In this document: piece by piece, positions 6,707 through 52,569 of the stretch
How positions within the stretch are numbered: the first letter of the stretch is position 1
Layout: each line of letters begins with the position of its first letter
From: a virus
Taxonomy: Duplodnaviria; Caudoviricetes
DNA length: 64,000 nt
Strand: one strand, 5' to 3'
Virus record (IMG/VR): IMGVR_UViG_3300029305_003320
Location: 1 to 64,000 of that record
Made by a program: the position numbers and the translations under genes
Notes under the pieces: model-generated
The model's input: only the letters and a program-made list of their open reading frames with translations
Databases searched by the model: none
Told to the model about the DNA's origin: nothing

Positions 6707-8805
6707 CAGGTACTGCAGATGAAAAATCCTTAGGCGCTAGCAGACTTCTGCTAAACGTCTGTAAAGGTATGCGTAACATCATTGAGCACGATGTCATCAA
6801 GACTGAGATGGCGAAGGTCACTGATCTGATCTTCGACCATCTCAAGGATCATTATGGTCCGTTCAGCTCATTCGCTGGTCTTGACAGCAACCGTCCTCTT
6901 GAAGATACTGTCTTCACTAAAGACGGTGCTAACATCATCCGTGCCATGGAATTCATAAGTCCTCAGGAAGACTGGGTACGTAGAGCTGTGTCTTATATCG
7001 GCAACCGAATTGAAAAAGCTGCTGGTGACGGAACGACTTCCTCAATGATGTTCACATGCGGTATGCTTAAGCACATGAGTGCTGGCATAGATCAGTTTAG
7101 ACCTTTGAGTTATGGACAGCTTAGACGGGCTTATGATGAGCTAGTCGAGGACGTCCGTAAAGGGTTTAAGGGATACACGATGTCGGCTAAAAAGGACGAC
7201 AAATACATACCAGAATTGGTTTATCGTCTAGCCTGGATGCAGGCGTACACATCGTCTCATGGCGATACCGAATTGGCAGATGCTGTTGCCAAGATGTTTA
7301 AGGTGTCTCCGCCGTCTATGTGGTCTAAGATCAACTTCGGTCGTAGGCGTTTTGAGAGTGAAAATAGGTTCGACATCATCGTGTCTAAACATCAGTACGA
7401 AATGGAAGCTGATATTTGGAATAAGAGCGTTTATAACGCTGATGGCGGAGAAGCTTTAGAGATGAAGAATGCAACACTCGTTGTTATCAATGACTGTGTT
7501 GCATGTAGCGATGTGCACTGGGATGAAGTTACTACTGCGATAGCTGAATCTACAAGAGAAGCTCCTGTAGTTATTCTTTGCCATTCTGGTATAGATACAA
7601 CGACGTGGGGAGAACTCACTCACTTTGCAACTCGTAAAGAAGAGAAGTTCAAGAACTGCTACTTCACTGTGTTCTACACCAAGCCTGTCCACTCGATGAT
7701 CAACGACTTCACTGCACTTCAAGCGATAGGTGGAGCTGATGTGTCAGAGTATACCTCTGGTAATGTTAACGGCGACATGACTGGCCGACCATACATCATC
7801 AAAGGAGTCGATGTCTACCACAAGGGAGAGAAGCTTGAGTTGGACAAGCTTTACGTCGACGAACGTCCTGATACAGATGTAATTCGTGATAGGCCTCAGT
7901 TGACTGATACGACTCTTCCGTTCTTTTCTGAATTCGCAGAATCTATTCAGAAGAGGATAGAAGGTCTTGAGCAGTTCGATGATACACGTCAGGTTCAGCG
8001 CGAGAGACTAAGTCTGGAACGTATTTATAACAAACTTAGGTATGACAAGACGTATACTGTCCTTATCGGTGGCAATACGTTTGACAACCTTGCTATGTTC
8101 GACGTTCTTGACGATGTACTTCGTGCGACTATACGTGGTCTTGAGAATGGCATTACCATCAGTAACAACAAAGCTCTCTACAACGTCGTCAAGGATTTGA
8201 TGATAGAGTATGCTGACAGGTTGATTGCAGATCTAACTGTAGTCGACAAAAAGATTACATCTATCAAGAAGTGGTTGTGTGAGTCTATCATGCATACTCT
8301 AGAGATGTTCTCTTATGTCGTGCTCAAGATGCTTTATCCTAAGGGACGTGAAGGCATTGAAGGTGAAGAGGCATTGTCTTTCTGGAAGAGATTGCTAAGT
8401 ATGCAGTTCTTCCAAGATACTAATATCCTAAATGCTGGATATCCTGAGAGTGATAAGATCAACCAGTATTATCTAGTCAATCCTGAAATCGGTAAACTCT
8501 TTACTGAGTCTGAGATTCTAGACTGGCATAACTGGTGGTTTAATAACTCCGTTGACATACTAAACTTCGATAGCACTAAGTGGTGGCGCAAACAGAGTCT
8601 GCGCGGTGTTGATAAGACTCTGGGATATGCTATAGACCACTTTACGCTCAATGACTATGACATGTCTGGTATCATTGTCCAGCCGGCCAATGCAGATATA
8701 GTTATGCTAGAGCGTTTTGGTGAGATAGCTCTGAGGTTCATTCTAACTGAGCGCGTCATCGTAAGTGGAGGCGCGTTTGTCAACGATAAGGATAAGAAGC
8801 AATGA
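6703..8805 (+). CDS. Phage-encoded GroEL-like chaperonin (divergent)
   Basis: HYGP, FTKDGANII, AAGDGTTSS (ATP-binding GDGTT) and VLIGG...DDVLRAT motifs; 700 aa. Confidence 0.85.
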   Translation: MTGTADEKSLGASRLLLNVCKGMRNIIEHDVIKTEMAKVTDLIFDHLKDHYGPFSSFAGLDSNRPLEDTVFTKDGANIIRAMEFISPQEDWVRRAVSYIGNRIEKAAGDGTTSSMMFTCGMLKHMSAGIDQFRPLSYGQLRRAYDELVEDVRKGFKGYTMSAKKDDKYIPELVYRLAWMQAYTSSHGDTELADAVAKMFKVSPPSMWSKINFGRRRFESENRFDIIVSKHQYEMEADIWNKSVYNADGGEALEMKNATLVVINDCVACSDVHWDEVTTAIAESTREAPVVILCHSGIDTTTWGELTHFATRKEEKFKNCYFTVFYTKPVHSMINDFTALQAIGGADVSEYTSGNVNGDMTGRPYIIKGVDVYHKGEKLELDKLYVDERPDTDVIRDRPQLTDTTLPFFSEFAESIQKRIEGLEQFDDTRQVQRERLSLERIYNKLRYDKTYTVLIGGNTFDNLAMFDVLDDVLRATIRGLENGITISNNKALYNVVKDLMIEYADRLIADLTVVDKKITSIKKWLCESIMHTLEMFSYVVLKMLYPKGREGIEGEEALSFWKRLLSMQFFQDTNILNAGYPESDKINQYYLVNPEIGKLFTESEILDWHNWWFNNSVDILNFDSTKWWRKQSLRGVDKTLGYAIDHFTLNDYDMSGIIVQPANADIVMLERFGEIALRFILTERVIVSGGAFVNDKDKKQ

Positions 8806-27575: not shown

Positions 27576-29147
27576 ATGAACCTATGTATTAAGAAACCTG
27601 GCATGTCTAGTGAGATAGTCACAGACAAGCTAGAGATGACAAGTATTGAGTGTGAAGCACTCGAGACCCTGTATGCTGCAGGGTTCCAGCTGGATAGTAT
27701 TAGCAGAGTTATCGACAATGCTAACTTTGCTCTAGCGTGGCTGAACAGTGCAGATGATAAAAAGTCTGTAGTTGACATGCTTGAACTGGAGAAGTCCTGC
27801 GAAGGACTCATTGCCAAGATTGATGGTGAAATCACAGCAGAAGCTGCAGTTGAGGGAATCGGAGAAGCTCTAGGCAGAGCCTGGGAAGCTATCAAGTCCT
27901 GGCTTGAGAAACTGTTCACTGCTGTGTTTAATCTTATCGCAGCTATCTTTGGTGCTGATGGGATCAAAGATAACAAACAGAAGCTTACTGATCTGAAAGA
28001 GACGGCTCCTGATGCAGATATTCTTGCCAAGGCTGACCTTAAGGGATCCGGTGTAGATATCACAGCTGAGCTCATCAAAGGTCGTACAGCTCTTATAGCA
28101 GAACTACTTCCTCAGCTTCAGAAGAATGCTGAAGAACGTCTAGCTGCCGCTGAGGCTTACAAGAAGGATCTTCAGTCTCAGGTAGAGATGGCTCGTCTAG
28201 ATGAGCGTGTTAAGGCACTCCAGACACTTGTAGATAAGTCTACTGAGCTTTCTACCAAGTACAATACTGCGATGGCTGAGCTAGCATCCAAGAACAGCAC
28301 TGCTGTTAACAACAATAACAACAACATTCTTGCTGGTTTGACTCCTGCTATTCTTACAGGTTTCGCCGGAGCTTATGCTGGAGCGTTTGATCCTAGTGGT
28401 CCTGCGGCAAAGATTGCAGAAACAACTAAGAAGATCAAGAAGGTCACAGAAGAGATCGAAACTGAGACAAAGAAGCGTAAAAAGAAGCCTGAGACAGGAG
28501 ATGGTGGCGGCACCACTCCAAAGCCTCCGGCACCAAATCCGAATCCCAATCCTCCTAAACCGCCTGCTCCGAATCCAAATCCCAACCCAAATCCGAAACC
28601 CCCTGCGCCTGCACCAGATCCTGTAACCAATCAGGCTCTTAAGGTTCTAGCAGATCTTGGAAAGACGACAGCGTCTGACTTCCGCATCATTAAGGCGGAA
28701 GATAAGTACGTTGACTCTGTTTGGGGTAAGATTAAGCGCGGTGCTGGATGGGTCTGTCGTAAAGGATGGGGTGGTAGAAACATTAAGGGTAACAAGGGGC
28801 TTCTTGCTGCTGCTCGCGAGCATAACAAGACTGCAACCAGAACTGTCATGCTTTGGGCATTGCGTCTGTATGTTATCGATGCCAATGAATCTACCATCGC
28901 TGATCTAGCTCAGAAGATTGGAACTGAGACAATGGTTATCAAGGCATTCATCACTGCCCTTAGAGCCACCGGTCTTAAGAAAACATTTGACACAGATAAA
29001 GGTGAATACCAGTGCACTGTGCCAGATGATGCTACAGCGAAGAAAATCGCTGCCGCACTTAAGATCAAACAGACCGATGTCGAGAATATCGTCAAGGAAG
29101 CCAATAAGCTCCCTGATCCTAAGGACTACAAGCCTGAAGAGCACTAA
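27576..29147 (+). CDS. Inner head / ejection protein paralog with Pro-Asn linker
   Basis: EAAVEG followed by IGEALGRAWEAIKSWLEKLF; PKPPAPNPNP repeats. Confidence 0.65.
   Translation: MNLCIKKPGMSSEIVTDKLEMTSIECEALETLYAAGFQLDSISRVIDNANFALAWLNSADDKKSVVDMLELEKSCEGLIAKIDGEITAEAAVEGIGEALGRAWEAIKSWLEKLFTAVFNLIAAIFGADGIKDNKQKLTDLKETAPDADILAKADLKGSGVDITAELIKGRTALIAELLPQLQKNAEERLAAAEAYKKDLQSQVEMARLDERVKALQTLVDKSTELSTKYNTAMAELASKNSTAVNNNNNNILAGLTPAILTGFAGAYAGAFDPSGPAAKIAETTKKIKKVTEEIETETKKRKKKPETGDGGGTTPKPPAPNPNPNPPKPPAPNPNPNPNPKPPAPAPDPVTNQALKVLADLGKTTASDFRIIKAEDKYVDSVWGKIKRGAGWVCRKGWGGRNIKGNKGLLAAAREHNKTATRTVMLWALRLYVIDANESTIADLAQKIGTETMVIKAFITALRATGLKKTFDTDKGEYQCTVPDDATAKKIAAALKIKQTDVENIVKEANKLPDPKDYKPEEH
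28513..28622 (+). repeat. Coding low-complexity repeat (PKPPAP-NPNP)n
   Basis: TTPKPPAPNPNPNPPKPPAPNPNPNPNPKPPAPAPDP in ORF 27576. Confidence 0.85.
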
Positions 29148-30096: not shown

Positions 30097-30852
30097 ATGC
30101 TTAAATGGCTTATAAACCTATTTAGGTCTCAGGAAGCTATAGACAAAGAGACTATAGCTTCAATGAAAGGTAAGTACAAACTTGGATGCGTTGCAGTCCC
30201 TAAAGATTTTGGGACTCTTCCAAAACTTAGTTTTGGATCTACCAGGTTCCAGGCTCCTAAAACAGTAGACCTGAGGGACTACTGCACCCAGACTGAAAAT
30301 CAGGGTGATAAACCCTATTGTGCCGCGTATACAGCCGCAGGTTTTGCTGAAAATATCCTTTGGCGCAAGAATGACTATATCACTCAGATAGATCCTGTCG
30401 CTATCTACAAGCGCGCTAAACAGATCGATGGTGATCCCTATGGTGAAGGTACTTCTCTCACAGCAGTCCTTCAAGTTCTGCTTGAAAAAGGATACTTCAG
30501 CTCAAAAGAGTGCAGGATTCAGGTAATTGATAATGTATCCGGATTCGATAACTCTATCAAGTATGCTATCCACAAGTTTGGTTGCTGCTTGTTAGCATGC
30601 AACATAACTGAGGAATGGTACCTGTGCGGTAAGAATAAGACATCCATAACAGGCAAGTCTTATAACAATTCGCTTGGTGGTCACGCTATTCTCTGCTGTG
30701 GGTATAACGAAGATGGGGTTATTATTCATAACTCCTGGGGTGAAGAGTGGGGTCAGTATGGATTCGCTCTTATTACGTGGAGTGCTTTAAGAGCTCAGTT
30801 CCTCTATGCTGCTGTTCTTAGTAATGCGCTAAACAACATGGCGATTAAGTGA
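30097..30852 (+). CDS. Papain-family (C1A) cysteine peptidase
   Basis: ENQGDKPYCAAY (Q, catalytic C), GGHAILCCGY (H), IHNSWGEEWGQYGF (N). Confidence 0.9.
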   Translation: MLKWLINLFRSQEAIDKETIASMKGKYKLGCVAVPKDFGTLPKLSFGSTRFQAPKTVDLRDYCTQTENQGDKPYCAAYTAAGFAENILWRKNDYITQIDPVAIYKRAKQIDGDPYGEGTSLTAVLQVLLEKGYFSSKECRIQVIDNVSGFDNSIKYAIHKFGCCLLACNITEEWYLCGKNKTSITGKSYNNSLGGHAILCCGYNEDGVIIHNSWGEEWGQYGFALITWSALRAQFLYAAVLSNALNNMAIK

Positions 30853-30858
30853 GGGTTT

Positions 30859-31872
30859 ATGGACAAAATTCTACTTCAAGATGTAGGATCTGAGATTATC
30901 TCGGATGCTACAGAAGCTATTCAGATTAGGGATGATATGGTTGAGCTCGGATTCTCGTCTAAAGCTATCGACTATGTCTGCGCGGATCTGAAGCAGGCTA
31001 TAACCATCATTAGGAACAGTGGAATCAAGGGTTATATCTACATGGTTGACCATGATGACGCCATGGCCGATAGGTTTAATATTCCTAAGTACGAGGCGGG
31101 TCTTTCGGTTGAAGCGCTTAAGGAATGTGAAGATAGGCACCTTAATGCCGCCATAGAAGGCCTAGAGGAATATCTCACTAGGTTCGTTGAGTTAATTAAG
31201 ACGATCATTGAAAAACTCAAATCCTGGTGCAAGACTATTCTTTCGTTCAGGAAGTTCCATCTGGATTATATCTCTAAGAACCTTGAGAGACTCTCCATGC
31301 TTCAGCCGGATACCAAGGTTAGTGGAGTAATGGGATATAAGGATGCTAACAAACTTCTTAGTGCGATTGAAGAAGTTCACAAGTATGTGAAGAGCATACC
31401 AAACAATCCTAACACTCAGGTTTCTCAGAATGGAAATCTTTTAAAGGTAATGACAGATCTTTGTCTGTCGTATGAACCTGGAGAAGACGGTACGTTCTAT
31501 GTGAATAATGCTGTTGTAGGTATCTCTGAGAGGTATCCTATTAAAGAGTTGTGCACACTTACTGAAGCTGGATGGTCTGCATCTAGCGCTAAAGACTTCG
31601 CTAAGAAGTTAACACAGCAGGATTCGCAGAAGCAGTTCAATGAGATCATTGCAACTGCTGAACGTCACGGTAAGTACGTATCTGAGTTCCAGATTGATGT
31701 TGTCAAACAGGCGAAGGAACCCAAACGTGACAGCACAGCTGCTGCTATGGTTAGATCCCATGGTTCTGTGGTGCGCATGCTTAGTAAGTTTGCTACTGTA
31801 GAACACCAGGCAGTTCTGCATTGCTGCAAGACTGTCAGAGGACTGATATCGGTAACACCTCCAATGAAATAA
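30859..31872 (+). CDS. Inner head / ejection protein paralog
   Basis: NAAIEG followed by LEEYLTRFVELIKTIIEKLKSW; N-terminal region resembles ORF 27576. Confidence 0.6.
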   Translation: MDKILLQDVGSEIISDATEAIQIRDDMVELGFSSKAIDYVCADLKQAITIIRNSGIKGYIYMVDHDDAMADRFNIPKYEAGLSVEALKECEDRHLNAAIEGLEEYLTRFVELIKTIIEKLKSWCKTILSFRKFHLDYISKNLERLSMLQPDTKVSGVMGYKDANKLLSAIEEVHKYVKSIPNNPNTQVSQNGNLLKVMTDLCLSYEPGEDGTFYVNNAVVGISERYPIKELCTLTEAGWSASSAKDFAKKLTQQDSQKQFNEIIATAERHGKYVSEFQIDVVKQAKEPKRDSTAAAMVRSHGSVVRMLSKFATVEHQAVLHCCKTVRGLISVTPPMK

Positions 31873-33356: not shown

Positions 33357-33363
33357 CATAAAA
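33357..33363 (-). promoter_or_regulatory. Late-type promoter motif TTTTATG
   Basis: cataaaa on + strand (ATTTTATGACTT on -). Confidence 0.5.
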
Positions 33364-33371
33364 TGGCAAAA

Positions 33372-33399
33372 AGAAGACGACCTATATAGGTCGTCTTCT
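33372..33399. terminator. 28-bp perfect palindrome
   Basis: agaagacgacctat-ataggtcgtcttct, preceded by caaaa. Confidence 0.75.
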
Positions 33400-33404
33400 A
33401 TTCT

Positions 33405-33959
33405 CTACACCTCAATGCAGATATCGTTGTAGATATAGAAATCCAGTACGAATTTGGCTATCTTGTTGCGAATGGTTTCACGCACTATCTGCATGTCATT
33501 GAACACGTCATTGATAGGCGCAATAACGAACTTTTTGTTCTCGCCGATCTTTTCATAGCAGTCAGGTTTGAGTCCCTGGATCTCGGATTCCTTGATCTCG
33601 CAGCTGGTTGTGGCGGCAGCATGCGCTCTCATCATCGCATCTGTTAGATCGCACAATATCTTATCGGCGTATTTGTTACGCCCTATCTCAAAGGCTTCCT
33701 TAAGATCAAACTGACTGACAGTGTCTGGATTATACTCCCCTCTTACAAAGAGGATGGTAGACTCCTGATACCATGTTTTTGGTTTCGTGTCAGGATCGGA
33801 CCGAATACTAATCACATAATCTGTGGTTCCCTCTTCATTTTTCCGTCTGCCGATGACGGTGATAGAGAGGTTCTCATGAGTGAGCTGAACGTCAAGGACG
33901 TTAACACTACCCATTATACACTCAATATCGTATCTTTCTAGTGTGCTTAGATTGTACAT
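33405..33959 (-). CDS. Hypothetical early protein
   Basis: 184 aa, AAGGAG RBS, TATATTAC upstream. Confidence 0.75.
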   Translation of the reverse strand: MYNLSTLERYDIECIMGSVNVLDVQLTHENLSITVIGRRKNEEGTTDYVISIRSDPDTKPKTWYQESTILFVRGEYNPDTVSQFDLKEAFEIGRNKYADKILCDLTDAMMRAHAAATTSCEIKESEIQGLKPDCYEKIGENKKFVIAPINDVFNDMQIVRETIRNKIAKFVLDFYIYNDICIEV

Positions 33960-33991: not shown

Positions 33992-33999
33992 GTAATATA
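33992..33999 (-). promoter_or_regulatory. Early promoter motif TATATTAC within a 14-bp palindrome
   Basis: GGTAATATATTACC at 33991-34004. Confidence 0.65.
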
Positions 34000-34602: not shown

Positions 34603-34705
34603 GTTTGTATCGCTCCTTACTTGCATTGTAAGGTACAAAGACCACACCACTCGGTGTGTACTATCTTTGTAACCAAGGGAATGATATATACATGAAACGG
34701 ACGAT

Positions 34706-34741
34706 CTACACCTCCACGGCATCACTGCCGTGGAGGTGTAG
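34706..34741. terminator. Long perfect hairpin
   Basis: ctacacctccacggca-tcac-tgccgtggaggtgtag. Confidence 0.75.
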
Positions 34742-34749
34742 GTTTGTCT

Positions 34750-35562
34750 TTATACCCATTCGTAGTTCCAAACTACATATTCTGTTCCACCGTACCATTT
34801 ATAGACTCTGTCTTTATCTAGTGTACGGACTTTACCTATTTGCTCATAGGTATCTCCTCTGGAAGGATCATACCAGTTCACTATAAAAACTTCGCCTTTT
34901 TTGCTGGCAATAAGTCTTAGGAATCCGAGTATAGATCCTGTAGCCGGGCTTCTGATGGTTCCTCCTTTTTCAAAATCCAGATGGAACTTCTCTTCACTTT
35001 TATCGAATGTGGCTTTAATTAGATCTTTGTCTGGAGTTTTATTATCAGATCTAACGAGTATAACTTGTTTAGCCCTTTTCGTGAGATAATCGGACTTGGC
35101 GGCCAGTTTTAGTCTTTGTGCTGTGGCATCCAGTAAGTAGATCTCGCCTCGTATATTAACAAGATTAAAAACATGACCGCTTCCGGACTCCCATGTGGCG
35201 GAAATAATAGCTCTTGATCCGTCACCCCATTTTTTCATAGTGTTTTCAGTTCTGTTGAATATATCTTTACCTGATATAACAACAGGATCTATCTTTTTGA
35301 ACAAGTGCCACATTGCATGAGGAGACTTACTACCTTTAGGGACATCGAACACTCTGTCCCATGGCGTGTCGGTGATAGTTACTTCCTTGTCAACGCCTCT
35401 GTATTTGAGTTCCAACGCAGCTGCGAACTTCTGACAATTGTTGCCCACTTTGTATTTGCTAAGTTCCTTAAGGAATTGCTTAGCTTTCTTGATTTCTGGC
35501 GGATCGTCACCAGATGCATCTGTAGACTTATTCTCTACACTTATGCCAAAGTTAACTCTCAT
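34750..35562 (-). CDS. Papain-fold toxin (Tox-PL / glutamine deamidase-like) domain protein with MRVNFG leader
   Basis: NNCQKFA (C), WESGSGHVFNLVN (H), IYLLDAT (D), GDGSRAII; N-terminal MRVNFGISVE. Confidence 0.7.
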   Translation of the reverse strand: MRVNFGISVENKSTDASGDDPPEIKKAKQFLKELSKYKVGNNCQKFAAALELKYRGVDKEVTITDTPWDRVFDVPKGSKSPHAMWHLFKKIDPVVISGKDIFNRTENTMKKWGDGSRAIISATWESGSGHVFNLVNIRGEIYLLDATAQRLKLAAKSDYLTKRAKQVILVRSDNKTPDKDLIKATFDKSEEKFHLDFEKGGTIRSPATGSILGFLRLIASKKGEVFIVNWYDPSRGDTYEQIGKVRTLDKDRVYKWYGGTEYVVWNYEWV

Positions 35563-35605
35563 TGCACCACCTATACCTTACAAAGACATTCGTAGTCTTT
35601 ATTCA

Positions 35606-35851
35606 TTATTTTAACAAGCGCAGACTGTAAAGTAAGTGAAGTATATTCACTGGTGAGAATTTCACAGTGAATCTGTCTGACGGATCTCTTCCGTCACTCT
35701 TGCATGTGGATAATTCTTTATCAAACTTATGCTTTATTTCTGATATCTCACTGTGATCATAATACTTTATCGCATTAAGAGCATCTTTTATTATATTCCA
35801 TAGTCCTTCAATCGATGCAGAATATGTTGGCACTCCGAAGTCTACTTTCAT
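35606..35851 (-). CDS. Short inner-head-like protein with MKVDFG leader
   Basis: MKVDFGVPTYSASIEG-LWNIIKDAL; AAAAGGAG RBS. Confidence 0.65.
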   Translation of the reverse strand: MKVDFGVPTYSASIEGLWNIIKDALNAIKYYDHSEISEIKHKFDKELSTCKSDGRDPSDRFTVKFSPVNILHLLYSLRLLK

Positions 35852-35909
35852 TTCAAGTTCTCCTTTTAAGATGGTTACATGGTCAAAAGAGAGACAACAC
35901 TTAAAGGTA

Positions 35910-35945
35910 AGTTACAGAGTGCGGGGCATCCCGCACTCTGTAACT
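35910..35945. terminator. Long perfect hairpin
   Basis: agttacagagtgcggg-gcat-cccgcactctgtaact. Confidence 0.75.
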
Positions 35946-35955
35946 ACATTCTAGT

Positions 35956-36528
35956 TTAGTCTTTCCGACGGGCAAGTGTTGATACCATGAATGCATCACA
36001 ACGAAATGCAAATTTGAACAGGTCAGCTGGCAATTCTGCAGAAACTCCGATTGGATTCTGTAGAGTATCTGATGCGTAACACATTGCAATTGGTGGCATT
36101 TCGATGAATCGAAATGCGTCCTTTGTTCCACGTCCTTCAACTTCCGTGAACTTAGGTTCGAACCCAATGTAGGTAAACCCGTTTAGTAATGTTTTCGCAT
36201 ATCCAAACATGCATTCATCAGTCACCGTCCACGTTGGTGGTGTAATCTCTTCAGGTTCGACATCACTTATATCGTACGCCTTGACATTGAGCTTGAGTCC
36301 GCCACCAACATCATGCTCTCTCTTTAAAAGCATCCTGATAGGCAGATACTTGTTGATATCGCTAACATATACTGTTAGTATAGCAGACTTATAATCAAAT
36401 GCCGTTGTAATAGCTGGTATTTGATCAAGTAGTGTGCGGATACGGTTGGCTGCTAGAACAACCGGGTTGGCTAGGTTCAGTTTTTCAGCAGCTGCCGCCT
36501 TGACGGACTTTCGTTTCTTCGTGGCCAT
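35956..36528 (-). CDS. Hypothetical protein
   Basis: 190 aa, AAAGGAG RBS. Confidence 0.75.
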   Translation of the reverse strand: MATKKRKSVKAAAAEKLNLANPVVLAANRIRTLLDQIPAITTAFDYKSAILTVYVSDINKYLPIRMLLKREHDVGGGLKLNVKAYDISDVEPEEITPPTWTVTDECMFGYAKTLLNGFTYIGFEPKFTEVEGRGTKDAFRFIEMPPIAMCYASDTLQNPIGVSAELPADLFKFAFRCDAFMVSTLARRKD

Positions 36529-36596
36529 GATACTCCTTTATGTTGTTTGTAGACATAACATCTACATTGCCTTTAATTTAAGACGGGATTTAGAAG

Positions 36597-37019
36597 CTAG
36601 ATGAGGACTAGACTGAGCTGCCATTTAGACAGTAGTCCCGAACTAACTATTTTCTTAATTGCACGTTCCGCACCGCCACGAGTTTTGTAGACCCTAATGC
36701 GATTGTTGTCGAACACAGGAAAACCTTTGCGCATCCCGCTATAATAACTAAGTTTGTTGGGATCATAATCGCCTTTGTTCCCACATGTAATTTTACCTGC
36801 AATTGCCCACCGACGACAATTGCGCGCAACCCAGATGAATCCCTTACGCGATATTCCGCTTGGAAGAAACGGAGCCGGAGGGTGTGAGTTACGAAGTATG
36901 CTTAGTGCTGAGCTAGTCATTACAAGTTCGTCGTATGTAAGGTGCTTCTTCTCCTTAGCGGCATTGATAGGTTTGCCTGATAGTTTTGGTACAGGGTTGA
37001 TAGATCGTTTCATTATCAT
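36597..37019 (-). CDS. Basic hypothetical early protein
   Basis: AAAGGA RBS; TATATTAC at 37064; exact start uncertain (37019 or 37013). Confidence 0.65.
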   Translation of the reverse strand: MIMKRSINPVPKLSGKPINAAKEKKHLTYDELVMTSSALSILRNSHPPAPFLPSGISRKGFIWVARNCRRWAIAGKITCGNKGDYDPNKLSYYSGMRKGFPVFDNNRIRVYKTRGGAERAIKKIVSSGLLSKWQLSLVLI

Positions 37020-37063
37020 TTCCTTTTTCATTGTGATGGTTGTAACTATTACAACTCATATAA

Positions 37064-37071
37064 GTAATATA
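37064..37071 (-). promoter_or_regulatory. Early promoter motif TATATTAC
   Basis: gtaatata on + strand. Confidence 0.65.
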
Positions 37072-37092
37072 TTTCTAAAATTATAATAAATG

Positions 37093-37123
37093 GGCATCTC
37101 CTGGGCTATACCCAGGAGATGCC
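37093..37123. terminator. Hairpin
   Basis: ggcatctcctggg-ctata-cccaggagatgcc. Confidence 0.75.
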
Positions 37124-37128
37124 GAGTT

Positions 37129-37857
37129 TTATAGTTTGCGCAGTTGTTTGTCCGTGTAAAACAGGAAATAATCAATAATCGAATATAGCTTAATTGCCAT
37201 TCTCGAGTATGTATAGAACGAACTAAAGTTTCCTATCTTGTCAGTCCTGGCTCCTGTGTCGAATGCTTTCTGCCCTTTGTACACTTTGTTAGCCATGCTG
37301 GCTTCCTTAGTGCTCTTAATCATGGTTTCCCATTTTGCAGATTTTAAAGTGTCCATGTGACTAGCAGCCCCGCGCCTAAAATCTTTGGCTATACTTGTCA
37401 CGGTTGACACAGAAAGTCCCATGTCTACATAAGTCCTGTCTTTGTAGCATAGTCTACGTTTTAAAGCGTCATCTTTCTCCTCTGTTATGAGGACAAAGTT
37501 TGACATGTTCTTATCCAAGTCACCCCTTATATTGTTGAGCCTGCCCACCAGGTCGGAATACAACTTATCAGAGTCGTTAGACTTAATCTCAGCGCGTTTT
37601 ACGGCGTCAAAATTGTCAACCATGAACTTGGTTACAACTTCTGTAAATTTAGTTGCTTGGATAAGTATGTCACCTTTAGGGCAGTAGAAGTCAATGGTTC
37701 TTCTTTCAAACTTGGCTCTCTGTTCGGGTTTTAGTGTTATAAGACTCTTGATAAGACCATCTATGATGTGTGCAGATTTACTATCTCTTGTAAAGGTGTG
37801 CTGGAGCTTTGTCCAGAATCCCTCACATGAGGGTTCTATTCCAAAATTAACCCTCAT
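37129..37857 (-). CDS. Inner-head-like protein with MRVNFG leader
   Basis: MRVNFGIEPSCEG-FWTKLQHTF. Confidence 0.65.
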   Translation of the reverse strand: MRVNFGIEPSCEGFWTKLQHTFTRDSKSAHIIDGLIKSLITLKPEQRAKFERRTIDFYCPKGDILIQATKFTEVVTKFMVDNFDAVKRAEIKSNDSDKLYSDLVGRLNNIRGDLDKNMSNFVLITEEKDDALKRRLCYKDRTYVDMGLSVSTVTSIAKDFRRGAASHMDTLKSAKWETMIKSTKEASMANKVYKGQKAFDTGARTDKIGNFSSFYTYSRMAIKLYSIIDYFLFYTDKQLRKL

Positions 37858-38443
37858 GATTCTTGCCCTCCTTCATGATGTAAGCATAATGCTCCTCATT
37901 TGTCATACCGAACCACTGCTTACATTTCTTATCTGACTCGGCTTTCATTGCTTCAGACATGAGTTTCCAATTGTTGTGTACTCTAGTCTGCTCAGCATTG
38001 TCTGGCTCTTTGTGGATCAACTCTATACCTGTCTGAGCTCTCCATGCATGAACCTTGTCATTCTTAAGTTTCTCGTAAACCTTTTCAGGATAGTGCTCTT
38101 TGATATAAGACAATTTGTAAGGTCTTTCATACTTACTCTTCTTTAGAGTTAGTACGAGTATCTTAGGATACTTCTTAAGGATTTCTATCTGTTTATTAGT
38201 GAGCTGTTTGTAGTAAGGACTATCTTCAACTCTAGAAATCTCTCTAGCACCAACTATCTCAAAACAGTGATTGCTGTCGATAGCTTCTGCATAGACGTAG
38301 TCACCTTTTTGGAACTTGGCTGCGTCAGAACTGACTCTATGTGTGATAATAGTAGTTTGTTTCTTAAGAGAATCTATTTCGGATTTAGGGAATGATATAT
38401 CCTTAACTACAACTCCGCTGCGTTCTCCAAAATTGACTTTCAT
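37847..38443 (-). CDS. Two-domain hypothetical protein with MKVNFG leader
   Basis: N-terminal ASCH/PUA-like pattern (THRVSSD..KFQKGDYV); C-terminal VHAWRAQTGIELIHKEP...FGMTNEEHY segment recalled from phage hypotheticals. Confidence 0.55.
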   Translation of the reverse strand: MKVNFGERSGVVVKDISFPKSEIDSLKKQTTIITHRVSSDAAKFQKGDYVYAEAIDSNHCFEIVGAREISRVEDSPYYKQLTNKQIEILKKYPKILVLTLKKSKYERPYKLSYIKEHYPEKVYEKLKNDKVHAWRAQTGIELIHKEPDNAEQTRVHNNWKLMSEAMKAESDKKCKQWFGMTNEEHYAYIMKEGKNHEG

Positions 38444-39267
38444 TGTTTTAATCCTTTTGATACTAAAATAGATATTCTACCTAGATCGGATGCCCACTGC
38501 TTATATGCATAAAATCCTTCCCTGCAGTCCATAACAGTTCTCTGAACTTTCATGAATTCGCCATCAGCAACGTCCGCTTTTGTGGCATATCCAAGTGTTT
38601 TATAGATTCCAAATGGACCTATAGATTTATCATCAGGGCCATTTCTAAAATCCAGTATCCCTGATTCGTATTTGCCATCTCCGAATACAACATTCACGAG
38701 ATATTCAAAACACTTTTCTAGTTTTTCCTTTGAGTATCCTAGTTGTTTAAGAGATCCGGATTTCCTAGTAGCCTTGGAAGAGTAACTCTCAGCAGATTTT
38801 ATATGATCTTCTAAAGATTTGCTGTATTTTAACTTCAAAAATTTATAGAAGCATTTTCCTACTTTTGTTGACAGCATATCTTCTTCATACCACTTATCGT
38901 CAACGGATTCTCTTGAGTTTTGAGCTGAAGCATAAGCTTTGAAGTCTGATACAGTTAGTTTGCTAAACTCCAGCACTAATGGCTGTACCTCTTTATTTAA
39001 GAGTTTTAAAAGCGGATCTAGAGTAGTTTCAAGAAAGTGTGTTACCTGATCTGCTGAAGGTATATCTCCGGAAGGTGTCATTTCTAATATTTTACCTACA
39101 GTGCTCTCAGACGCCGATTTAAGATCATTCGACATCTTAGAGTAATAGCTTTTAATAAAATCTGCTGTAGGATCTTTGGATTCCTTTTTTGTAAAAATGG
39201 ACTTTATTTTATCCAAAAGACCTTCCTCAGACATTTCAACAATAGGAGTGCCAAAATTTACTTTCAT
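38440..39267 (-). CDS. Inner-head-like protein with MKVNFG leader
   Basis: Start refined to 39267 (GAGGA RBS): MKVNFGTPIVEMSEEG-LLDKIKSIFTK. Confidence 0.65.
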   Translation of the reverse strand: MKVNFGTPIVEMSEEGLLDKIKSIFTKKESKDPTADFIKSYYSKMSNDLKSASESTVGKILEMTPSGDIPSADQVTHFLETTLDPLLKLLNKEVQPLVLEFSKLTVSDFKAYASAQNSRESVDDKWYEEDMLSTKVGKCFYKFLKLKYSKSLEDHIKSAESYSSKATRKSGSLKQLGYSKEKLEKCFEYLVNVVFGDGKYESGILDFRNGPDDKSIGPFGIYKTLGYATKADVADGEFMKVQRTVMDCREGFYAYKQWASDLGRISILVSKGLKQ

Positions 39268-39309
39268 TGTTAAATCCTCATTATGAAATTTCTCTGAGCA
39301 CAAAAAGAA

Positions 39310-39332
39310 GAGAGTGCCTGTTAGGCACTCTC
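39310..39332. terminator. Hairpin
   Basis: gagagtgcct-gtt-aggcactctc, preceded by caaaaag. Confidence 0.7.
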
Positions 39333-39336
39333 CAGG

Positions 39337-39855
39337 TTATTTCCCTTGTCCGACTGTTACGTTTGGTTTTACAAGACTTGGGGCGTTTATGTCATCCAGC
39401 CAAGCGAAGTACCTCTTGATACAGTCTCCAAGCTTTTTCTGTTTTTCTTCTATAGCTTTACGAGTCAGCCAGTAGATACCACCACACTTCTCAGTTTCAA
39501 CGTTCTTTGGCTCTCCGTTGAATTTAACAACTTTAAAGATGTGCACTTTGTCAGGGATGGTCTTTCCTTCAATTTCGTATTCCCTCTGGAACTGAAGTAT
39601 CTCCATAAAGTTCTCAATCTCAACGGCAAGCTCTTCTTTATTCTCGGCTATTAATGCCTCAGTAACAGCTTGGTCTGGCTTTACCTTGCCTATAGGGAAA
39701 GTTAGCTGCTCGTATTTCTTGTGCAGCATCACTAGATACTCGAGATCACTTTTATCTTCAGTATATCTGGTGAATATTGCAACCACAGATTCATGAGGTT
39801 TCTTATCTTCTTTGTTGATAAGTTTATTATCCTCTGTTCCAAAGTCAATTTTCAT
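39337..39855 (-). CDS. Nudix hydrolase (degenerate box) with MKIDFG leader
   Basis: HESVVAIF...YLVMLH...LTFPIGKVKPDQAVTEALIAENKEELAV, a Nudix box with variant residues; PKNVETEKC..IYW. Confidence 0.75.
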   Translation of the reverse strand: MKIDFGTEDNKLINKEDKKPHESVVAIFTRYTEDKSDLEYLVMLHKKYEQLTFPIGKVKPDQAVTEALIAENKEELAVEIENFMEILQFQREYEIEGKTIPDKVHIFKVVKFNGEPKNVETEKCGGIYWLTRKAIEEKQKKLGDCIKRYFAWLDDINAPSLVKPNVTVGQGK

Positions 39856-40874
39856 TTGTTCTCCTTGGATTTTTCTGGTTTACACGTCATTATCTTGGAT
39901 CCTTTACGGCAGAATGATTCGAACTCGACCATATCACATCCGTATTTTGGGTATCCGTTAAGTTCGAATACTTGAATGTCAGTTTTCTCCATGTTTGCCA
40001 TTGCTGTGCCAATCCACTTAATTAACTCATTTGGATTCTTGGTTTTCCAGTTGTTGTTCTTGAAAGGTCCCCAGGACCCTTCAAGCCATTTCCATTGGTC
40101 ATCAGTATCCCAATATATCAAGAACGTGTGCGTTGGGCAGTCCATAAACCCACCGTTCTTATCAACCATGAAGAATGTTCTAAACTGAATCCCCTTTGCC
40201 TTCTTGAGATACTCTCTGCTTATGGCGACAGTATCGTAGCAGTTTCCTATTCCTGACTTTATCGTCTCTTCTGGAGTAGCAAGTCTCCATTCCGAGTCGT
40301 AGTCCTGCCATCTAGTATTCTCATGTGACTCGTTCCATGGCTTGTTAGTTTTAGGGTCTCTTAGACCATATCGGATATTCTTGAATATATCCTTGATAGT
40401 CTCGACTTCCGTCTTTACGACTTCAAACTCTTTGTCCCACAAAGTACCTTCATATTCAGAGCCGTCAGGCTTCTTGGCTTTGAATGTGTGTTTGCCACCA
40501 ACAGAGGTGATCTTTATTTTTTGGAGATACTTAACCGTTACAGGACATGTTACCCAGACTTCACCTGTAAGCACTACATCTGGAACTTGATCTTTTGTAG
40601 GCTTAGTTATGTGTTTAAGCAAATTGTCCTTATCTTTATCTTGAAGGTCTATAGTGAAAACATAGATTTCAGTCCCTACGTAGTTCTTGCCTATGGCTCT
40701 AAGACAGTTTTTGATTGAACTACTAAAAGAGACTCTCGGAGTCTTTCCGTCCTCTATTCCCATCTTAACGTATTCGTTGTCAGGGACTCTAGGGAATAGT
40801 GTTGTACCATTGATATTCTTTCGAGATATGTGGTACAACTTTGGGACATCTCTAGTCCCGAAGTTTACTTTCAT
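39852..40874 (-). CDS. ADP-ribosyltransferase-fold-like plus transglutaminase-like fusion with MKVNFG leader
   Basis: N-domain LYHIS...PRVSFSSSI...TGEVW (H-S-E pattern); C-domain GIGNCYD...PTHTFLIY...WKWLEGSW (C-H-E). Confidence 0.55.
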   Translation of the reverse strand: MKVNFGTRDVPKLYHISRKNINGTTLFPRVPDNEYVKMGIEDGKTPRVSFSSSIKNCLRAIGKNYVGTEIYVFTIDLQDKDKDNLLKHITKPTKDQVPDVVLTGEVWVTCPVTVKYLQKIKITSVGGKHTFKAKKPDGSEYEGTLWDKEFEVVKTEVETIKDIFKNIRYGLRDPKTNKPWNESHENTRWQDYDSEWRLATPEETIKSGIGNCYDTVAISREYLKKAKGIQFRTFFMVDKNGGFMDCPTHTFLIYWDTDDQWKWLEGSWGPFKNNNWKTKNPNELIKWIGTAMANMEKTDIQVFELNGYPKYGCDMVEFESFCRKGSKIMTCKPEKSKENK

Positions 40875-40922
40875 GGTTAAATCTCTCTTTCATTGCTGTA
40901 ATAAATAGACATACCATCGTTG

Positions 40923-40954
40923 GTCCATCTACCGGATTACACCGGTAGATGGAC
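40923..40954. terminator. Hairpin
   Basis: gtccatctaccgg-attaca-ccggtagatggac. Confidence 0.75.
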
Positions 40955-40964
40955 TTTATAGACG

Positions 40965-41420
40965 TTATTTGTCTTTCTTCTCTTTTTCTTCGAGTTCTTT
41001 TATTCTAGCATTCAACTCATCGAACCCCTTCTTGGACAGAGGCTCTCCAGTGTCTGGGTCCATTTGAATGGCGCTGTCATCGCAGAATCCGATCATGAAG
41101 CAATCCTTCTCAGACGTGACTTCTAGTTCGACACCTATGTGCTTCTTACACCATTTCTTAATGACATTGGCCATGTCTTCATAAGAAACATTATTGATAC
41201 TTCTAGACACATGGGACAGTCTTGCAGTGAATACTTTAACTACTATGCCCTTTGCAAGCCACCCTTTAACTCGTTCTACCATTTTCGGAATAGGATCTCC
41301 TATTACGTCCCATCCTTTAAATGTATCATAACTTGCAAGAGTTCTATCTAAGTCTACTCCTATCCAGGGGGGATAATTAGGTTTCTCTTCCTTGGACTCT
41401 ACTCCAAAATTAATCTTCAT
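40965..41420 (-). CDS. HAD-superfamily phosphatase (polynucleotide kinase 3'-phosphatase-like) with MKINFG leader
   Basis: WIGVDLDRTL (DxD), VKVFTAR, EKD..M..FCDDSA. Confidence 0.75.
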   Translation of the reverse strand: MKINFGVESKEEKPNYPPWIGVDLDRTLASYDTFKGWDVIGDPIPKMVERVKGWLAKGIVVKVFTARLSHVSRSINNVSYEDMANVIKKWCKKHIGVELEVTSEKDCFMIGFCDDSAIQMDPDTGEPLSKKGFDELNARIKELEEKEKKDK

Positions 41421-41503
41421 TAAAACCTCCTTATGGAATGGTTATAATCGAAAAAAAAGAAACCGCCACAAAGGCGGTCTCTCGTGTGGTTCCGATGCAA
41501 TTA

Positions 41504-44399: not shown

Positions 44400-44407
44400 G
44401 TAATATA
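44400..44407 (-). promoter_or_regulatory. Early promoter motif TATATTAC
   Basis: gtaatata on + strand. Confidence 0.65.
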
Positions 44408-47646: not shown

Positions 47647-47666
47647 AAGTACTCCTGTACTGATGG

Positions 47667-47909
47667 TTATTTATTACGGTTCTTCTTGCGTGCAATCTTG
47701 GCCAATTTAGCCTTGCGTTTAGCCTTTTCCTTCTGTTTCTTAGTTCTTGTATCAAGAGTCTTAAAGAACCTAGGATCTAATGTTGTCATAGGACTAAGTA
47801 TCCTTGGAGGTAAAGTTGTATTACTAGATTTTGGCCATCCTGTAGGATCGATGGTTTCCTCTATTTCAACATCCTGGTGCTTAAGACCAGGTTCATCTGT
47901 CACATGCAT
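47667..47909 (-). CDS. Small protein with very basic C-terminal tail
   Basis: Ends KKQKEKAKRKAKLAKIARKKNRNK; AAGGAG RBS. Confidence 0.65.
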   Translation of the reverse strand: MHVTDEPGLKHQDVEIEETIDPTGWPKSSNTTLPPRILSPMTTLDPRFFKTLDTRTKKQKEKAKRKAKLAKIARKKNRNK

Positions 47910-50235: not shown

Positions 50236-52569
50236 TTAAGGAAGCGTATCGTAATTTACTGTGAACTCAGCTGCCCTCGTACCGCACTTTGTCTCATAAA
50301 TAAGTGTGATTGGTATAATGGTTCCTGAGGTAGCAACAGGGGTCTCTCCGGATACAGGTGTATAATCAAAACTGATAGTGTAGTTGTAGAAGGTACCGTC
50401 TAGTATACCATCAGTATTTAGACTGGTAGCTCCTGCTACTTCACGGGTTATAGTGGTCCCACCACTTATCGGATATTTGATCTTTAGAGAAACACCCGCA
50501 TGTAGATTAGTACCTTCTAAAAGTTTTGATCCATCTGCAGTAAACTTGGTTCCATCCCATTTGACATGTGCATCGGTAATTATTGGAGACCAATCAGTTC
50601 CATCATCGAATTCAGTAATCTCGCCGATGACTAGTTTACTATACGGCTGTTTTACAGTGATCTTAGCAGGAAGCTTATATGCTTGCCACTTGTTTACGAT
50701 AATACCCTTGATTCCTGCCGGAAGTTCATCTAGACTAAACCCACATGGAAGTCCTGCACACACTTCGGGCTCGTTTGGAAGATACACTTCATAATTCCTT
50801 AGCTCACCACTTGGTGGTTCGTCTACATATAGCTCAGTTCCTGGACCTAAAGTGCCTTCTGGTAAAACTGTTACTACAGATCCAGATCTTAGAGTGACAT
50901 TAATGTCTCCGGAGGTAATGGTATCTTGGGAAATTTCCAAACTTTTAGGATCAGCTGATCCTCCGAGTAGCCTACCATTCTCAACAATCTTCACATCCAT
51001 AAATTGCAGAGAGTTGGGTGTGGAGTTGATCCCTGTTCCGAGTTGAACTGATCCAGTTGCAGTGGCTTGAGCACTATGTCCTATGGCAACTGTATTGGCA
51101 CCTGTCGCTTGTGTATGATCCATAGTACCAGATTGCCCGGATCCTATTGCAACAGATCCATTACCAGTTGCTTTAGTAGAATAGCCTATCGCAACTGATG
51201 TAGCACCAGATGCATAAGCGTTATTTCCAGTCAGATCAGTTTCTACATTAAGACTCTTTGATCCGCCACCAATAGCTATCGATTGTCCTCCGGCCGCATT
51301 TGCACAATATCCGATTGCAACACTCTGTTGAGTTGTTTTGTTAGATGCGTTCGTAGCACTGGCACGTCCTCCGATTGCAACCGATGCGTTTCTTATTATC
51401 GTGTCAGAAGAGCTAATTGAATTTATTATAGTCTGACTAATTCCAGCTGCCGCATCTTTTCCTATTTCTACAGGACAGTTCTGTTCGTAACCGTCTTTTA
51501 CAAAGGTTATTCCCTTGCTTATCTGTGTGTTAGACAAACGAACAGTGGGTCCTTCTAGTTCTTTTCTGACTAGATAGTCTAGAGGATCATCGTTAATGTA
51601 GACAGCTTTAAGACCCGGTGAATACTGTGAGTATCCAGGCATGCCCCACGCAACTATGTTGAATGTCCCTGGGCCATGAGTCTTACCATAACGCCAGTCG
51701 TACTTTCCAGGTATGTAATCAGGACTGAACAATCTGTAGGTGTTGTCATCTGCAACATCTCCTTCATTAACAGATTTTACCTTGTAAGTAGATCCTTCCT
51801 TTTCGTAGTAGTATTCCAGATATCCTAGCTCAGGGAGAATCGATCCAGGAACTATCTTAACATACACGTCTCTGTCATTGATCACATAATCATAATAGAA
51901 TCCTAAAGAATTGGCAGTTGATCTGATGTTAGTTATAGTCAAGATCTGTTTCGTGTCAGTAACATGTATGTGGAATCCTGGAAATATGTTATTTCTTAGC
52001 GACTGCAGATAAATGGCTACATTAGCTGCAGTGTTGGTGTAATCGTAAGTGACCCCGTTGGTAGAAGGCCTTCTTCCGTGACCAATTACAGTGGACCACT
52101 GGTCCGCAGCAGTTATTCCGTAACCTATAGCTGTAGCGTTACTTGTTACAACGTTCAACTGACTTCCCCATGCGTAGGAGTGCATTCCTATGGCTTTATT
52201 CGATGTTCCTATCGTCACAGAGTATCTTCCTAGTGTCGGAGAATTAGCTGCACTTGCTACATATGGAGGAACGCCTACTTCGTTGTCTATACCTAAGTTG
52301 ACATTGAACGAACTGTAAGTATAAGAAGGGTACCAAGGGCTGTTATAAAAGTTAACAGAAGTACCTGGTAAATAAGTCGACTCAAATGGATCCCACCATG
52401 CATGGAATACTTTATTTGCAATATTCACTACATTAGTAGGGTGCACCCACGGCGCAGATGATGGGGCAGACCCTTTAGTGTCGGCATAGAACTCTCCGTC
52501 ATATGTCGTAGATTTGGCCACTGCAAGTGATGTGACTAGTGCTGCAGTAGCTATTAATAATTTTTTCAT
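50236..52569 (-). CDS. YadA/Hep-Hag head-repeat adhesin or fibre-like protein with Sec-type signal peptide
   Basis: MKKLLIATAALVTSLAVA; repeats SVAIG/SIAIG/TVAIG/SVQLG; no C-terminal autotransporter barrel recognised. Confidence 0.65.
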   Translation of the reverse strand: MKKLLIATAALVTSLAVAKSTTYDGEFYADTKGSAPSSAPWVHPTNVVNIANKVFHAWWDPFESTYLPGTSVNFYNSPWYPSYTYSSFNVNLGIDNEVGVPPYVASAANSPTLGRYSVTIGTSNKAIGMHSYAWGSQLNVVTSNATAIGYGITAADQWSTVIGHGRRPSTNGVTYDYTNTAANVAIYLQSLRNNIFPGFHIHVTDTKQILTITNIRSTANSLGFYYDYVINDRDVYVKIVPGSILPELGYLEYYYEKEGSTYKVKSVNEGDVADDNTYRLFSPDYIPGKYDWRYGKTHGPGTFNIVAWGMPGYSQYSPGLKAVYINDDPLDYLVRKELEGPTVRLSNTQISKGITFVKDGYEQNCPVEIGKDAAAGISQTIINSISSSDTIIRNASVAIGGRASATNASNKTTQQSVAIGYCANAAGGQSIAIGGGSKSLNVETDLTGNNAYASGATSVAIGYSTKATGNGSVAIGSGQSGTMDHTQATGANTVAIGHSAQATATGSVQLGTGINSTPNSLQFMDVKIVENGRLLGGSADPKSLEISQDTITSGDINVTLRSGSVVTVLPEGTLGPGTELYVDEPPSGELRNYEVYLPNEPEVCAGLPCGFSLDELPAGIKGIIVNKWQAYKLPAKITVKQPYSKLVIGEITEFDDGTDWSPIITDAHVKWDGTKFTADGSKLLEGTNLHAGVSLKIKYPISGGTTITREVAGATSLNTDGILDGTFYNYTISFDYTPVSGETPVATSGTIIPITLIYETKCGTRAAEFTVNYDTLP

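Follow-up and report, generated by a model that had tools for sequence, protein, structure and literature searches.

A Six-Residue N-Terminal Tag on Eight Unrelated Proteins of an Uncultured phiKZ-Like Phage, a Candidate Capsid-Loading Leader

Introduction

The internal proteins of phage T4, together with Alt, are loaded into the head by a 10-20-residue N-terminal capsid targeting sequence (CTS) that is removed by the prohead protease (PMC9026906). Targeting lies in the N-terminal residues of the CTS, and an Asp at the cut site stops processing, not targeting (PMC9026906). Alt is an ADP-ribosyltransferase (ART), which T4 packages through a propeptide (PMC5694885). Here we compare with these leaders a locus from an uncultured virus, found in a stretch of 64,000 nucleotides (positions 1 to 64,000 of IMG/VR record IMGVR_UViG_3300029305_003320, hereafter the window). 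Eight of its genes encode unrelated proteins that all start with M-[KR]-[VI]-[ND]-F-G, which we call the tag. An earlier note on this DNA had proposed that the tag is a signal for loading enzymes into the capsid.

Among giant phages, the phiKZ protease gp175 cuts at S/A/G-x-E and gp162 loses a 17-residue N-terminal peptide (PMC11297242, PMC9026906). [quoted passage not shown] As read from the phiKZ genome, gp162 has an S-L-E whose Glu is residue 17, and gp92-97 and gp153 have S/L-L-E at residues 10-15, the form in gp93-97 being S-L-E. In SPN3US, gp45 has a 20-residue propeptide, and gp53 and gp54 have identical N-termini that were called "reminiscent of" CTSs, with a targeting role inferred by the authors (PMC5694885). 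An S-V-E is found at residue 15 in SPN3US. The literature on SPN3US and phiKZ infers a targeting role for propeptides and names no common short signal (PMC5694885, PMC10052503). How giant phages select the dozens of proteins packed beside their DNA is the question on which the tag would bear.

We favor the reading that the shared start is a lineage-specific, T4-CTS-like and mostly cleavable leader that would load ejected enzymes, in an exchangeable set, into the capsid; we give this reading a probability of roughly 0.6. The principle is already known, both from the T4 CTS and from short cleaved phiKZ leaders such as that of gp162. A compact tag on unrelated enzyme folds in a phiKZ-like phage is not described in the literature that we searched.

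Results

Eight Proteins Share the Tag at Residues 1-6

The window covers the first 64 kb of one contig of 83,868 bases. The eight tagged open reading frames (ORFs) occupy 34750-41420 on the minus strand, with starts at 35562, 35851, 37857, 38443, 39267, 39855, 40874, and 41420:

40965..41420, minus strand: tagged gene 1, g41420, 151 aa; M-K-I-N-F-G, acidic linker with G-V-E and K-E-E, HAD-like phosphatase domain from W19
39852..40874, minus strand: tagged gene 2, g40874, 340 aa; M-K-V-N-F-G, N-domain suggestive of an ART-like fold, C-domain with a transglutaminase-like cysteine protease fold
39337..39855, minus strand: tagged gene 3, g39855, 172 aa; M-K-I-D-F-G-T-E, linker of about 20 residues, NUDIX hydrolase (PF00293, E 5.6e-7)
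38440..39267, minus strand: tagged gene 4, g39267, 275 aa; M-K-V-N-F-G, later M-S-E-E followed by G-L-L, no family assigned
37847..38443, minus strand: tagged gene 5, g38443, 198 aa; M-K-V-N-F-G-E, without canonical cut site, no family assigned
37129..37857, minus strand: tagged gene 6, g37857, 242 aa; M-R-V-N-F-G-I-E-P-S-C-E followed by G-F-W, all-helical, no family assigned
35606..35851, minus strand: tagged gene 7, g35851, 81 aa; M-K-V-D-F-G, later S-I-E followed by G-L-W
34750..35562, minus strand: tagged gene 8, g35562, 270 aa; M-R-V-N-F-G-I-S-V-E, papain-fold glutamine-deamidase-like domain (PF15644 Gln_amidase, E 1e-7)

A six-frame scan of the whole contig found [KR][VI][ND]FG nine times. 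Eight occurrences directly follow the start Met of the tagged ORFs, and the ninth, internal to a 700-aa protein at 7327 (plus strand), is about what chance predicts. No further ORF of the contig begins with M-[KR]-[VI]-[ND]-F-G. Given the amino-acid frequencies of the contig, the probability of the tag is 4.6e-6 per protein, and that of finding it on at least 8 of 102 ORFs is about 5e-32. The tag is thus a short N-terminal leader common to unrelated proteins, as the T4 CTS is, placed at residues 1-6 in 8/8 cases. The bodies behind it showed no significant pairwise similarity by blastp, apart from a short stretch in three of them (E-G-[LF]-[WL]) that follows the putative cut site.

It is the peptide, not the DNA, that is conserved at these starts, because codons 2-6 of the tag are alike in their first and second positions (pairwise nucleotide identity 0.83 and 0.91) and not in the third (0.46), nor is the flanking DNA (0.28-0.38). 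The earlier note had said as much, and its other basic observations hold as well: the eight minus-strand starts are recovered by the ORFs and by the six-frame scan, the pattern search that it proposed, run over the contig, finds the pattern enriched at residue 1, and no full-length homology among the eight proteins is seen by blastp.

The same comparison bears on the idea that the start is conserved for the sake of translation initiation or mRNA structure, as a downstream-box-like element of a co-regulated set. Lys at codon 2 (AAA or AAG) is common in well-expressed genes, and the eight genes form one cluster. However, the amino acids are fixed, and free variation is seen at the synonymous positions. 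A stop codon lies 6-24 codons 5' of every tagged start, and a Shine-Dalgarno-like purine run is clear at 7/8 of them (weak at g40874), but beyond this run the regions upstream of the tagged starts have nothing in common. We regard a translational role as very improbable.

The Tag Is an Added Extension, Often Followed by a Protease-Type Site

The HAD-like protein g41420 offers a view of how the tag is attached. In about 105 ordinary HAD homologues, the catalytic motif follows 2-6 residues after the start, whereas all 12 members of the jumbo-phage clade (12/12) have an extension of 14-18 residues that opens with the tag or a variant of it. The tblastn matches of the protein in cultured phages begin at query residue 19-20. 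Because ordinary homologues lack the extension and cultured-phage matches begin only behind it, these alignments indicate that the tag is appended and is not part of the HAD fold.

The earlier note had also counted an S/G-x-E in six of the proteins. Indeed, [S/A/G]-x-E ends at residues 6-20 in 6/8 tagged proteins and in 19/88 untagged ORFs (Fisher p = 0.0036), and g38443 and g40874 have no canonical site within 20 residues. In six ortholog families, the first 8-20 residues are variable, and in four of the six conservation begins directly after [S/A/G]-x-E. Orthologs of g37857 are conserved from E12/G13, with S-C-E or A-Q-E before an invariant G-F-W-x-K-L-Q-H, and the deamidase family of g35562 has S-V-E or A-L-E at the conservation boundary. 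The AF2 model of g37857 has pLDDT below 50 over residues 1-12, and its first helix starts at residue 14.

The major capsid protein of the clade carries [S/A/G]-[L/V/M]-E at residue 135 in 33/34 sequences, which suggests that the specificity of the phiKZ-type protease has been kept in the clade. Residues 133-137 of this protein (contig 70347-72566) are a nearly invariant S-L-E-S-L in 33/34 clade members, a probable mark of the maturation cut of a major capsid protein propeptide of about 135 residues.

The sites and the conservation boundary would support cleavage as well as they support targeting, and binding by the six residues is something that we infer. The leader could then be only a propeptide that the protease removes, for instance one that keeps the enzymes inactive or unfolded, with the head address located elsewhere or with passive entry into the head. 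However, conservation of the six residues far exceeds that of the site or of the linker, and two tagged proteins lack any site. The equivalent residues in T4 are targeting determinants (PMC9026906). In addition, tags co-vary within genomes across unrelated cargo, as described below, which is not expected of a mere spacer. We therefore consider a propeptide without address function unlikely, although of the alternatives it is the one we take most seriously.

Relatives Keep the Tag and Exchange the Cargo

Metagenomes commonly contain homologues of g40874 and g41420, and eight metagenome loci were taken as the sample of relatives. To judge by their names, the related metagenome records seem to derive from studies of the ruminant gut. 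The same kind of tagged cluster was present in 8/8 of the loci. The near-identical relative L011 has a HAD protein 98% identical to g41420 and eight genes that start with M-K-V-N-F-G or a one-residue variant. One of these, at L011:17587-18693, encodes a 368-aa protein with the exact tag that passes the Pfam cut-off for the phiKZ internal head protein family phiKZ_IP (PF12699; 33.1 bits vs 27). A tagged protein at L002:2800-3810 matches the same family with 33.8 bits.

The gene for the 368-aa protein is missing from the window, where a gap at 33359-33405 takes its place, and for this reason gain and loss of cargo genes takes place even among phages that are very close. In the place of g40874, g38443, and g35851 of the window, L011 has two other tagged genes, one for a GNAT protein and one for a transglutaminase-like protein that stands alone. 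Such variation between near-identical phages suggests, by analogy, an arms-race locus like the internal-protein locus of T4.

The tag itself changes with distance. Distant relatives of the tagged internal head protein, with 24-27% overall identity, start with M-K-F-N-L-G or M-K-L-I-S-G, and the consensus over four lineages is M-x(0-2)-[KR]-hydrophobic-x-hydrophobic. The six-residue tag is one lineage's form of this looser motif, which is followed by a linker and a protease-type site. Genomes have their own flavors of it: K-V-N-F-G here, [VI]-K-L-x-[ILS] in L004, and [KR]-Y-[ST]-[LVI] in L001. Tags are more alike within a genome than within a protein family (14.9 vs 6.6, a value reached in 0/2000 permutations), in a comparison that covers a small set of hand-picked N-termini from few genomes. 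A loose regular expression for the general motif hits 16/96 ORFs, including signal peptides and other proteins, and is unusable as a detector on its own.

Cassette exchange could itself produce a shared start, as a by-product of recombination at a conserved 5' end, and the peptide would then have no function. That cargo content and order differ between near-identical phages, with domains reshuffled behind the tag, is in keeping with this idea, and the internal-protein locus of T4 is also variable between relatives (PMC9026906). However, with third positions at 46% identity and flanks at about 30%, the DNA is not conserved, so that 18 bases would make a poor recombination substrate. The persistence of the peptide in proteins with only 24-27% overall identity is also against it. 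Such a by-product has little probability in our judgment.

The Tagged Proteins

Several of the cargo enzymes named in the earlier note could be assigned with confidence: the papain-fold deamidase-like and Nudix domains by their Pfam matches given above, and the HAD-like phosphatase by a W-I-G-V-D-L-D motif and by membership in a large HAD-like family with a D-x-D-x-T motif. In actinobacteriophages, domains that match the deamidase-like domain of g35562 are joined to MuF-like capsid proteins. The combination of ART-like and transglutaminase-like domains proposed for g40874 is secure in its second half. The AF2 model of this protein (pLDDT 86.8; residues 1-7 below 50) confirms, at the level of predicted structure, a transglutaminase-like cysteine protease fold for the C-domain, with matches to CPR-C4 (Z 10.9) and vasohibin (Z 9.6) and an Atlas TM of 0.83 to DUF553/Transglut_core. 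For the N-domain, a consistent series of ADP-ribosyltransferase toxin matches of moderate Z (4.5-6.4), with no Pfam match, is suggestive of an ART-like fold.

Two other labels did not survive. The ASCH-like assignment of g38443 was confirmed neither by Atlas features nor by Pfam on 13 family members. The "inner-head-like" label given to three tagged proteins was dropped, as no profile similarity to phiKZ_IP was found: 0/8 window proteins match the PF12699 model, and HHalign comparison of two cargo families without assignment against phiKZ_IP gave probabilities of 0.1-2.2. A Foldseek search of g37857 against viral models returned no significant match, the weak top rows being mostly jumbo-phage proteins.

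The N-terminal domain of g38443 is fused in relatives to a transglutaminase-like domain, with the same tag in front, and g35851 is a truncated copy of a 261-aa tagged protein of relative L014. The transglutaminase-like domain is found behind three N-terminal arrangements (ART-like, g38443-type, or none), always with the tag in front (P0016-P0031, L011:11032-11643, L014:12615-13652). In bacterial proteins among the Atlas rows, this domain type is paired with ASCH or GNAT. In relative L003 (L003:9812-10852), a frameshift or stop divides the ortholog of g40874, which leaves 56 aa with the tag and another 283 aa behind them.

Six of the eight tagged proteins are basic, with isoelectric points of 7.9-9.5. 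The mean GC content of the tagged genes is 0.389 vs 0.433 for the remaining contig genes, which fits recently acquired accessory cargo. GC content is 0.374 at 38000-40000 and 0.42-0.47 elsewhere.

The Phage and the Neighborhood of the Cluster

The contig encodes a major capsid protein of the PhiKZ_MCP family (contig 70347-72566; PF25620, E 1e-22), and, as in phiKZ, the gene of a DnaB-like helicase lies beside it. A virion protein of 1465 aa has matches in 290 phiKZ-like phage records, with about 25% identity. Virion proteins are about 25% identical to those of SPN3US and Erwinia jumbo phages, and further virion proteins are also found on the contig. CheckV estimates its completeness at 32%, and near-identical proteins occur on contigs of up to 281 kb. 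Judging by this gene content, the contig is part (~32%) of the genome of a phiKZ-like jumbo phage. Against 50,697 phage records, neither megablast of the region nor tblastn with g40874 or g37857 as the query gave a match, and three protein scans of IMG/VR found no relatives.

Other features in and around the tagged cluster are:

41457..41483, minus strand: terminator-like hairpin at the end of the upstream unit, just ahead of the first tagged gene
39309..39333, minus strand: terminator-like hairpin between tagged genes 3 and 4
37093..37123, minus strand: terminator-like hairpin after tagged gene 6 and before the early-type insert
35956..37071, minus strand: untagged insert of two genes (144 aa and 190 aa) that breaks up the tagged cluster, with an early-promoter-like T-A-T-A-T-T-A-C at 37064-37071
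34703..34744, no strand given: long symmetric hairpin directly after the last tagged gene
27576..29147, plus strand: untagged 523-aa protein with a weak phiKZ_IP match (PF12699, 21.1 bits; cut-off 27)

The terminator-like hairpins divide the tagged cluster into three units. Both genes of the insert are conserved, and untagged, in relatives L011 and L014. The octamer T-A-T-A-T-T-A-C occurs 12 times on the 84-kb contig where about 2.6 copies are expected (~5x), with 11 copies on the minus strand and one on the plus strand (33996); minus-strand examples are at 37064-37071, 33992-33999, 44400-44407, and 2762-2769. Eleven copies lie 5-45 bases (most of them 22-45) before called starts, including those of the DNA polymerase and the untagged insert. 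It looks like the core of the early promoter of the phage. None of the 12 copies precedes a tagged gene (0/8). No convincing late-promoter motif common to the upstream regions of the tagged units was found. The heptamer T-A-A-C-C-A-T lies 23-26 bases before four starts on the minus strand (35871-35877, 41438-41444, 47663-47669, and contig 76373-76379), two of them the starts of genes that open tagged units; the heptamer may belong to a further class of promoter, with weak counts of 20 vs about 10 expected.

These data bear on the alternative that the tag is a sorting signal for the phage nucleus or an early-infection vesicle, as the earlier note had raised for nucleus and vesicle, or for the envelope, and not for the capsid. 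Nucleus-forming phiKZ-like phages do sort proteins selectively (PMC13282480), and a short N-terminal tag common to enzymes would suit such a role. However, the DNA polymerase and the DnaB-like helicase of the contig, typical residents of a replication compartment, are untagged, which disfavors a nucleus or vesicle address. In addition, the tag is found on the PF12699 internal head protein of L011, it is too little hydrophobic for Sec or lipoprotein export, and the tagged genes lack the early-type promoter motif. We consider such a sorting signal improbable.

Two neighboring genes are described for completeness. A papain-family peptidase-like protein (PF00112, E 3e-7, above the cut-off) is encoded at 30097-30852 (plus strand) among internal-head-like genes, a position kept in L013 and L015. 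A 777-aa protein at 50236-52569 (minus strand) has a signal-peptide-like start and faint YadA-head matches. Proteins of about 42% identity to it are encoded beside the tagged cluster in L002, L003, and L014, and an early-type promoter motif lies in front of it.

Discussion

The capsid-loading reading draws on several observations. Those that we counted for it are the tag on a PF12699 member, the add-on nature of the tag, the boundary after the linker, the co-variation within genomes, and the enrichment of the cut-site motif. Also counted were the phiKZ-like contig, the like motif at the maturation site of the major capsid protein and at the cut in phiKZ gp162, the swapped cargo, the absence of the early promoter, the MuF-fused deamidase-like domain, and the packaging of Alt in T4. 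The portable capsid address, cut at S/G-x-E, that the earlier note proposed thus gains substantial comparative support, with three amendments: its six residues are one lineage's version, two of the proteins have no canonical site, and the ASCH-like and inner-head-like labels are not confirmed.

According to this reading, the tagged proteins would be made late in infection with a flexible leader, composed of a basic-hydrophobic-polar-hydrophobic core (here K-V-N-F-G) and a short, often acidic linker. During prohead assembly, this leader core would dock on a phage-encoded component of the interior, perhaps on the inner surface of the capsid or on the prohead core. Most tagged proteins would then be cut at the first [S/A/G]-x-E by the prohead protease, which would leave the mature enzyme free inside the head; most leaders are probably removed by a protease of the phiKZ type. 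The enzymes (deamidase-like, NUDIX, HAD-like phosphatase, and ART-like/transglutaminase-like, with GNAT in relatives) would exit together with the DNA, to act in the host at an early stage. The locus would then be a cassette site, where cargo is exchanged and the leader retained. Packaging, cleavage, ejection, the receptor, and any counter-defense role are what we infer from the sequence comparisons.

Several points weigh against the capsid-loading reading. Its support comes from comparison of sequences and models in an uncultured phage, and no cultured phage with the tag was found among the 50,697 phage records. The tagged proteins of the window do not match phiKZ_IP, and larger internal-head-like proteins (27576-29147 and 30859-31872) lack the tag, so that the tag is not the sole route into the head. 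No gene for a prohead protease turned up on this 32% fragment, where no homology search was aimed at one. The canonical cut site is missing from g38443 and g40874, and the within-genome comparison of tags has the narrow base noted above. Finally, characterized propeptides of giant phages are mostly longer than 100 residues (PMC5694885).

A more general proposition can be made tentatively. It is possible, although we put it below even odds, that in phiKZ-like jumbo phages a compact N-terminal code particular to each genome, M-x(0-2)-[KR]-hydrophobic-x-hydrophobic together with a protease site, is read by one phage-encoded prohead receptor that co-evolves with it. If so, the whole injected enzyme arsenal of such a phage would be readable from its sequence, and six to fifteen added residues could suffice to load a foreign protein into a giant capsid. 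Even the narrower capsid-loading reading, if true, would allow candidate injected effectors of uncultured jumbo phages to be listed from sequence and would provide a concrete tool for experiments and for loading large capsids with foreign proteins. By their predicted functions, the cargo enzymes are plausible early host-takeover or counter-defense enzymes.

How the locus relates to described systems can now be stated. MuF-fused polymorphic toxins and polyvalent proteins carry similar types of cargo domain and are thought to be packaged in the head and injected (PMC5576092, PMC5512222). In those systems an entire MuF domain serves as the address, or the enzymes are strung together in a single giant protein, whereas here separate small proteins carry a six-residue tag. 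The cargo-loading peptides of encapsulins, which are short terminal peptides on unrelated enzymes and dock inside an HK97-fold shell, provide an analogy only; they are usually C-terminal and uncleaved, and involve neither DNA nor ejection. In SPN3US, gp53 and gp54 are two paralogs only, with propeptides of about 124 residues and a sequence unrelated to the tag. The inner-body proteins of phiKZ (gp92-97, gp153, and gp162) share with this locus the supergroup and the cut-site motif, and PF12699 members are tagged in relatives. However, similar starts in phiKZ are found on paralogous helical proteins, most characterized propeptides are long, and the phiKZ leaders lack the K-V-N-F-G core, whereas here a compact tag is found on unrelated enzyme folds.

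The T4 CTS of IPI, IPII, IPIII, and Alt (Mullaney and Black, 1996, via PMC9026906 and PMC5694885) is alike in being an N-terminal leader on unrelated, mostly basic proteins that ends in a protease site with Glu at P1, for which 6/8 tagged proteins here have the motif of a putative site. The two systems also have in common a variable set of internal proteins, one ADP-ribosyltransferase cargo (here suggestive), and delivery with the DNA (which we propose here). They differ in their sites, L/I-x-E in T4 and S/A/G-x-E here, and in the leader, which in this phage has an invariant core of just six residues and a linker of variable length. Because the leaders show by eye no likeness beyond M-K, and because the phage is phiKZ-like (with T=27 capsids) and not T4-like, the tag is, as far as these sequences tell, an analogue and not a homologue of the T4 leader.

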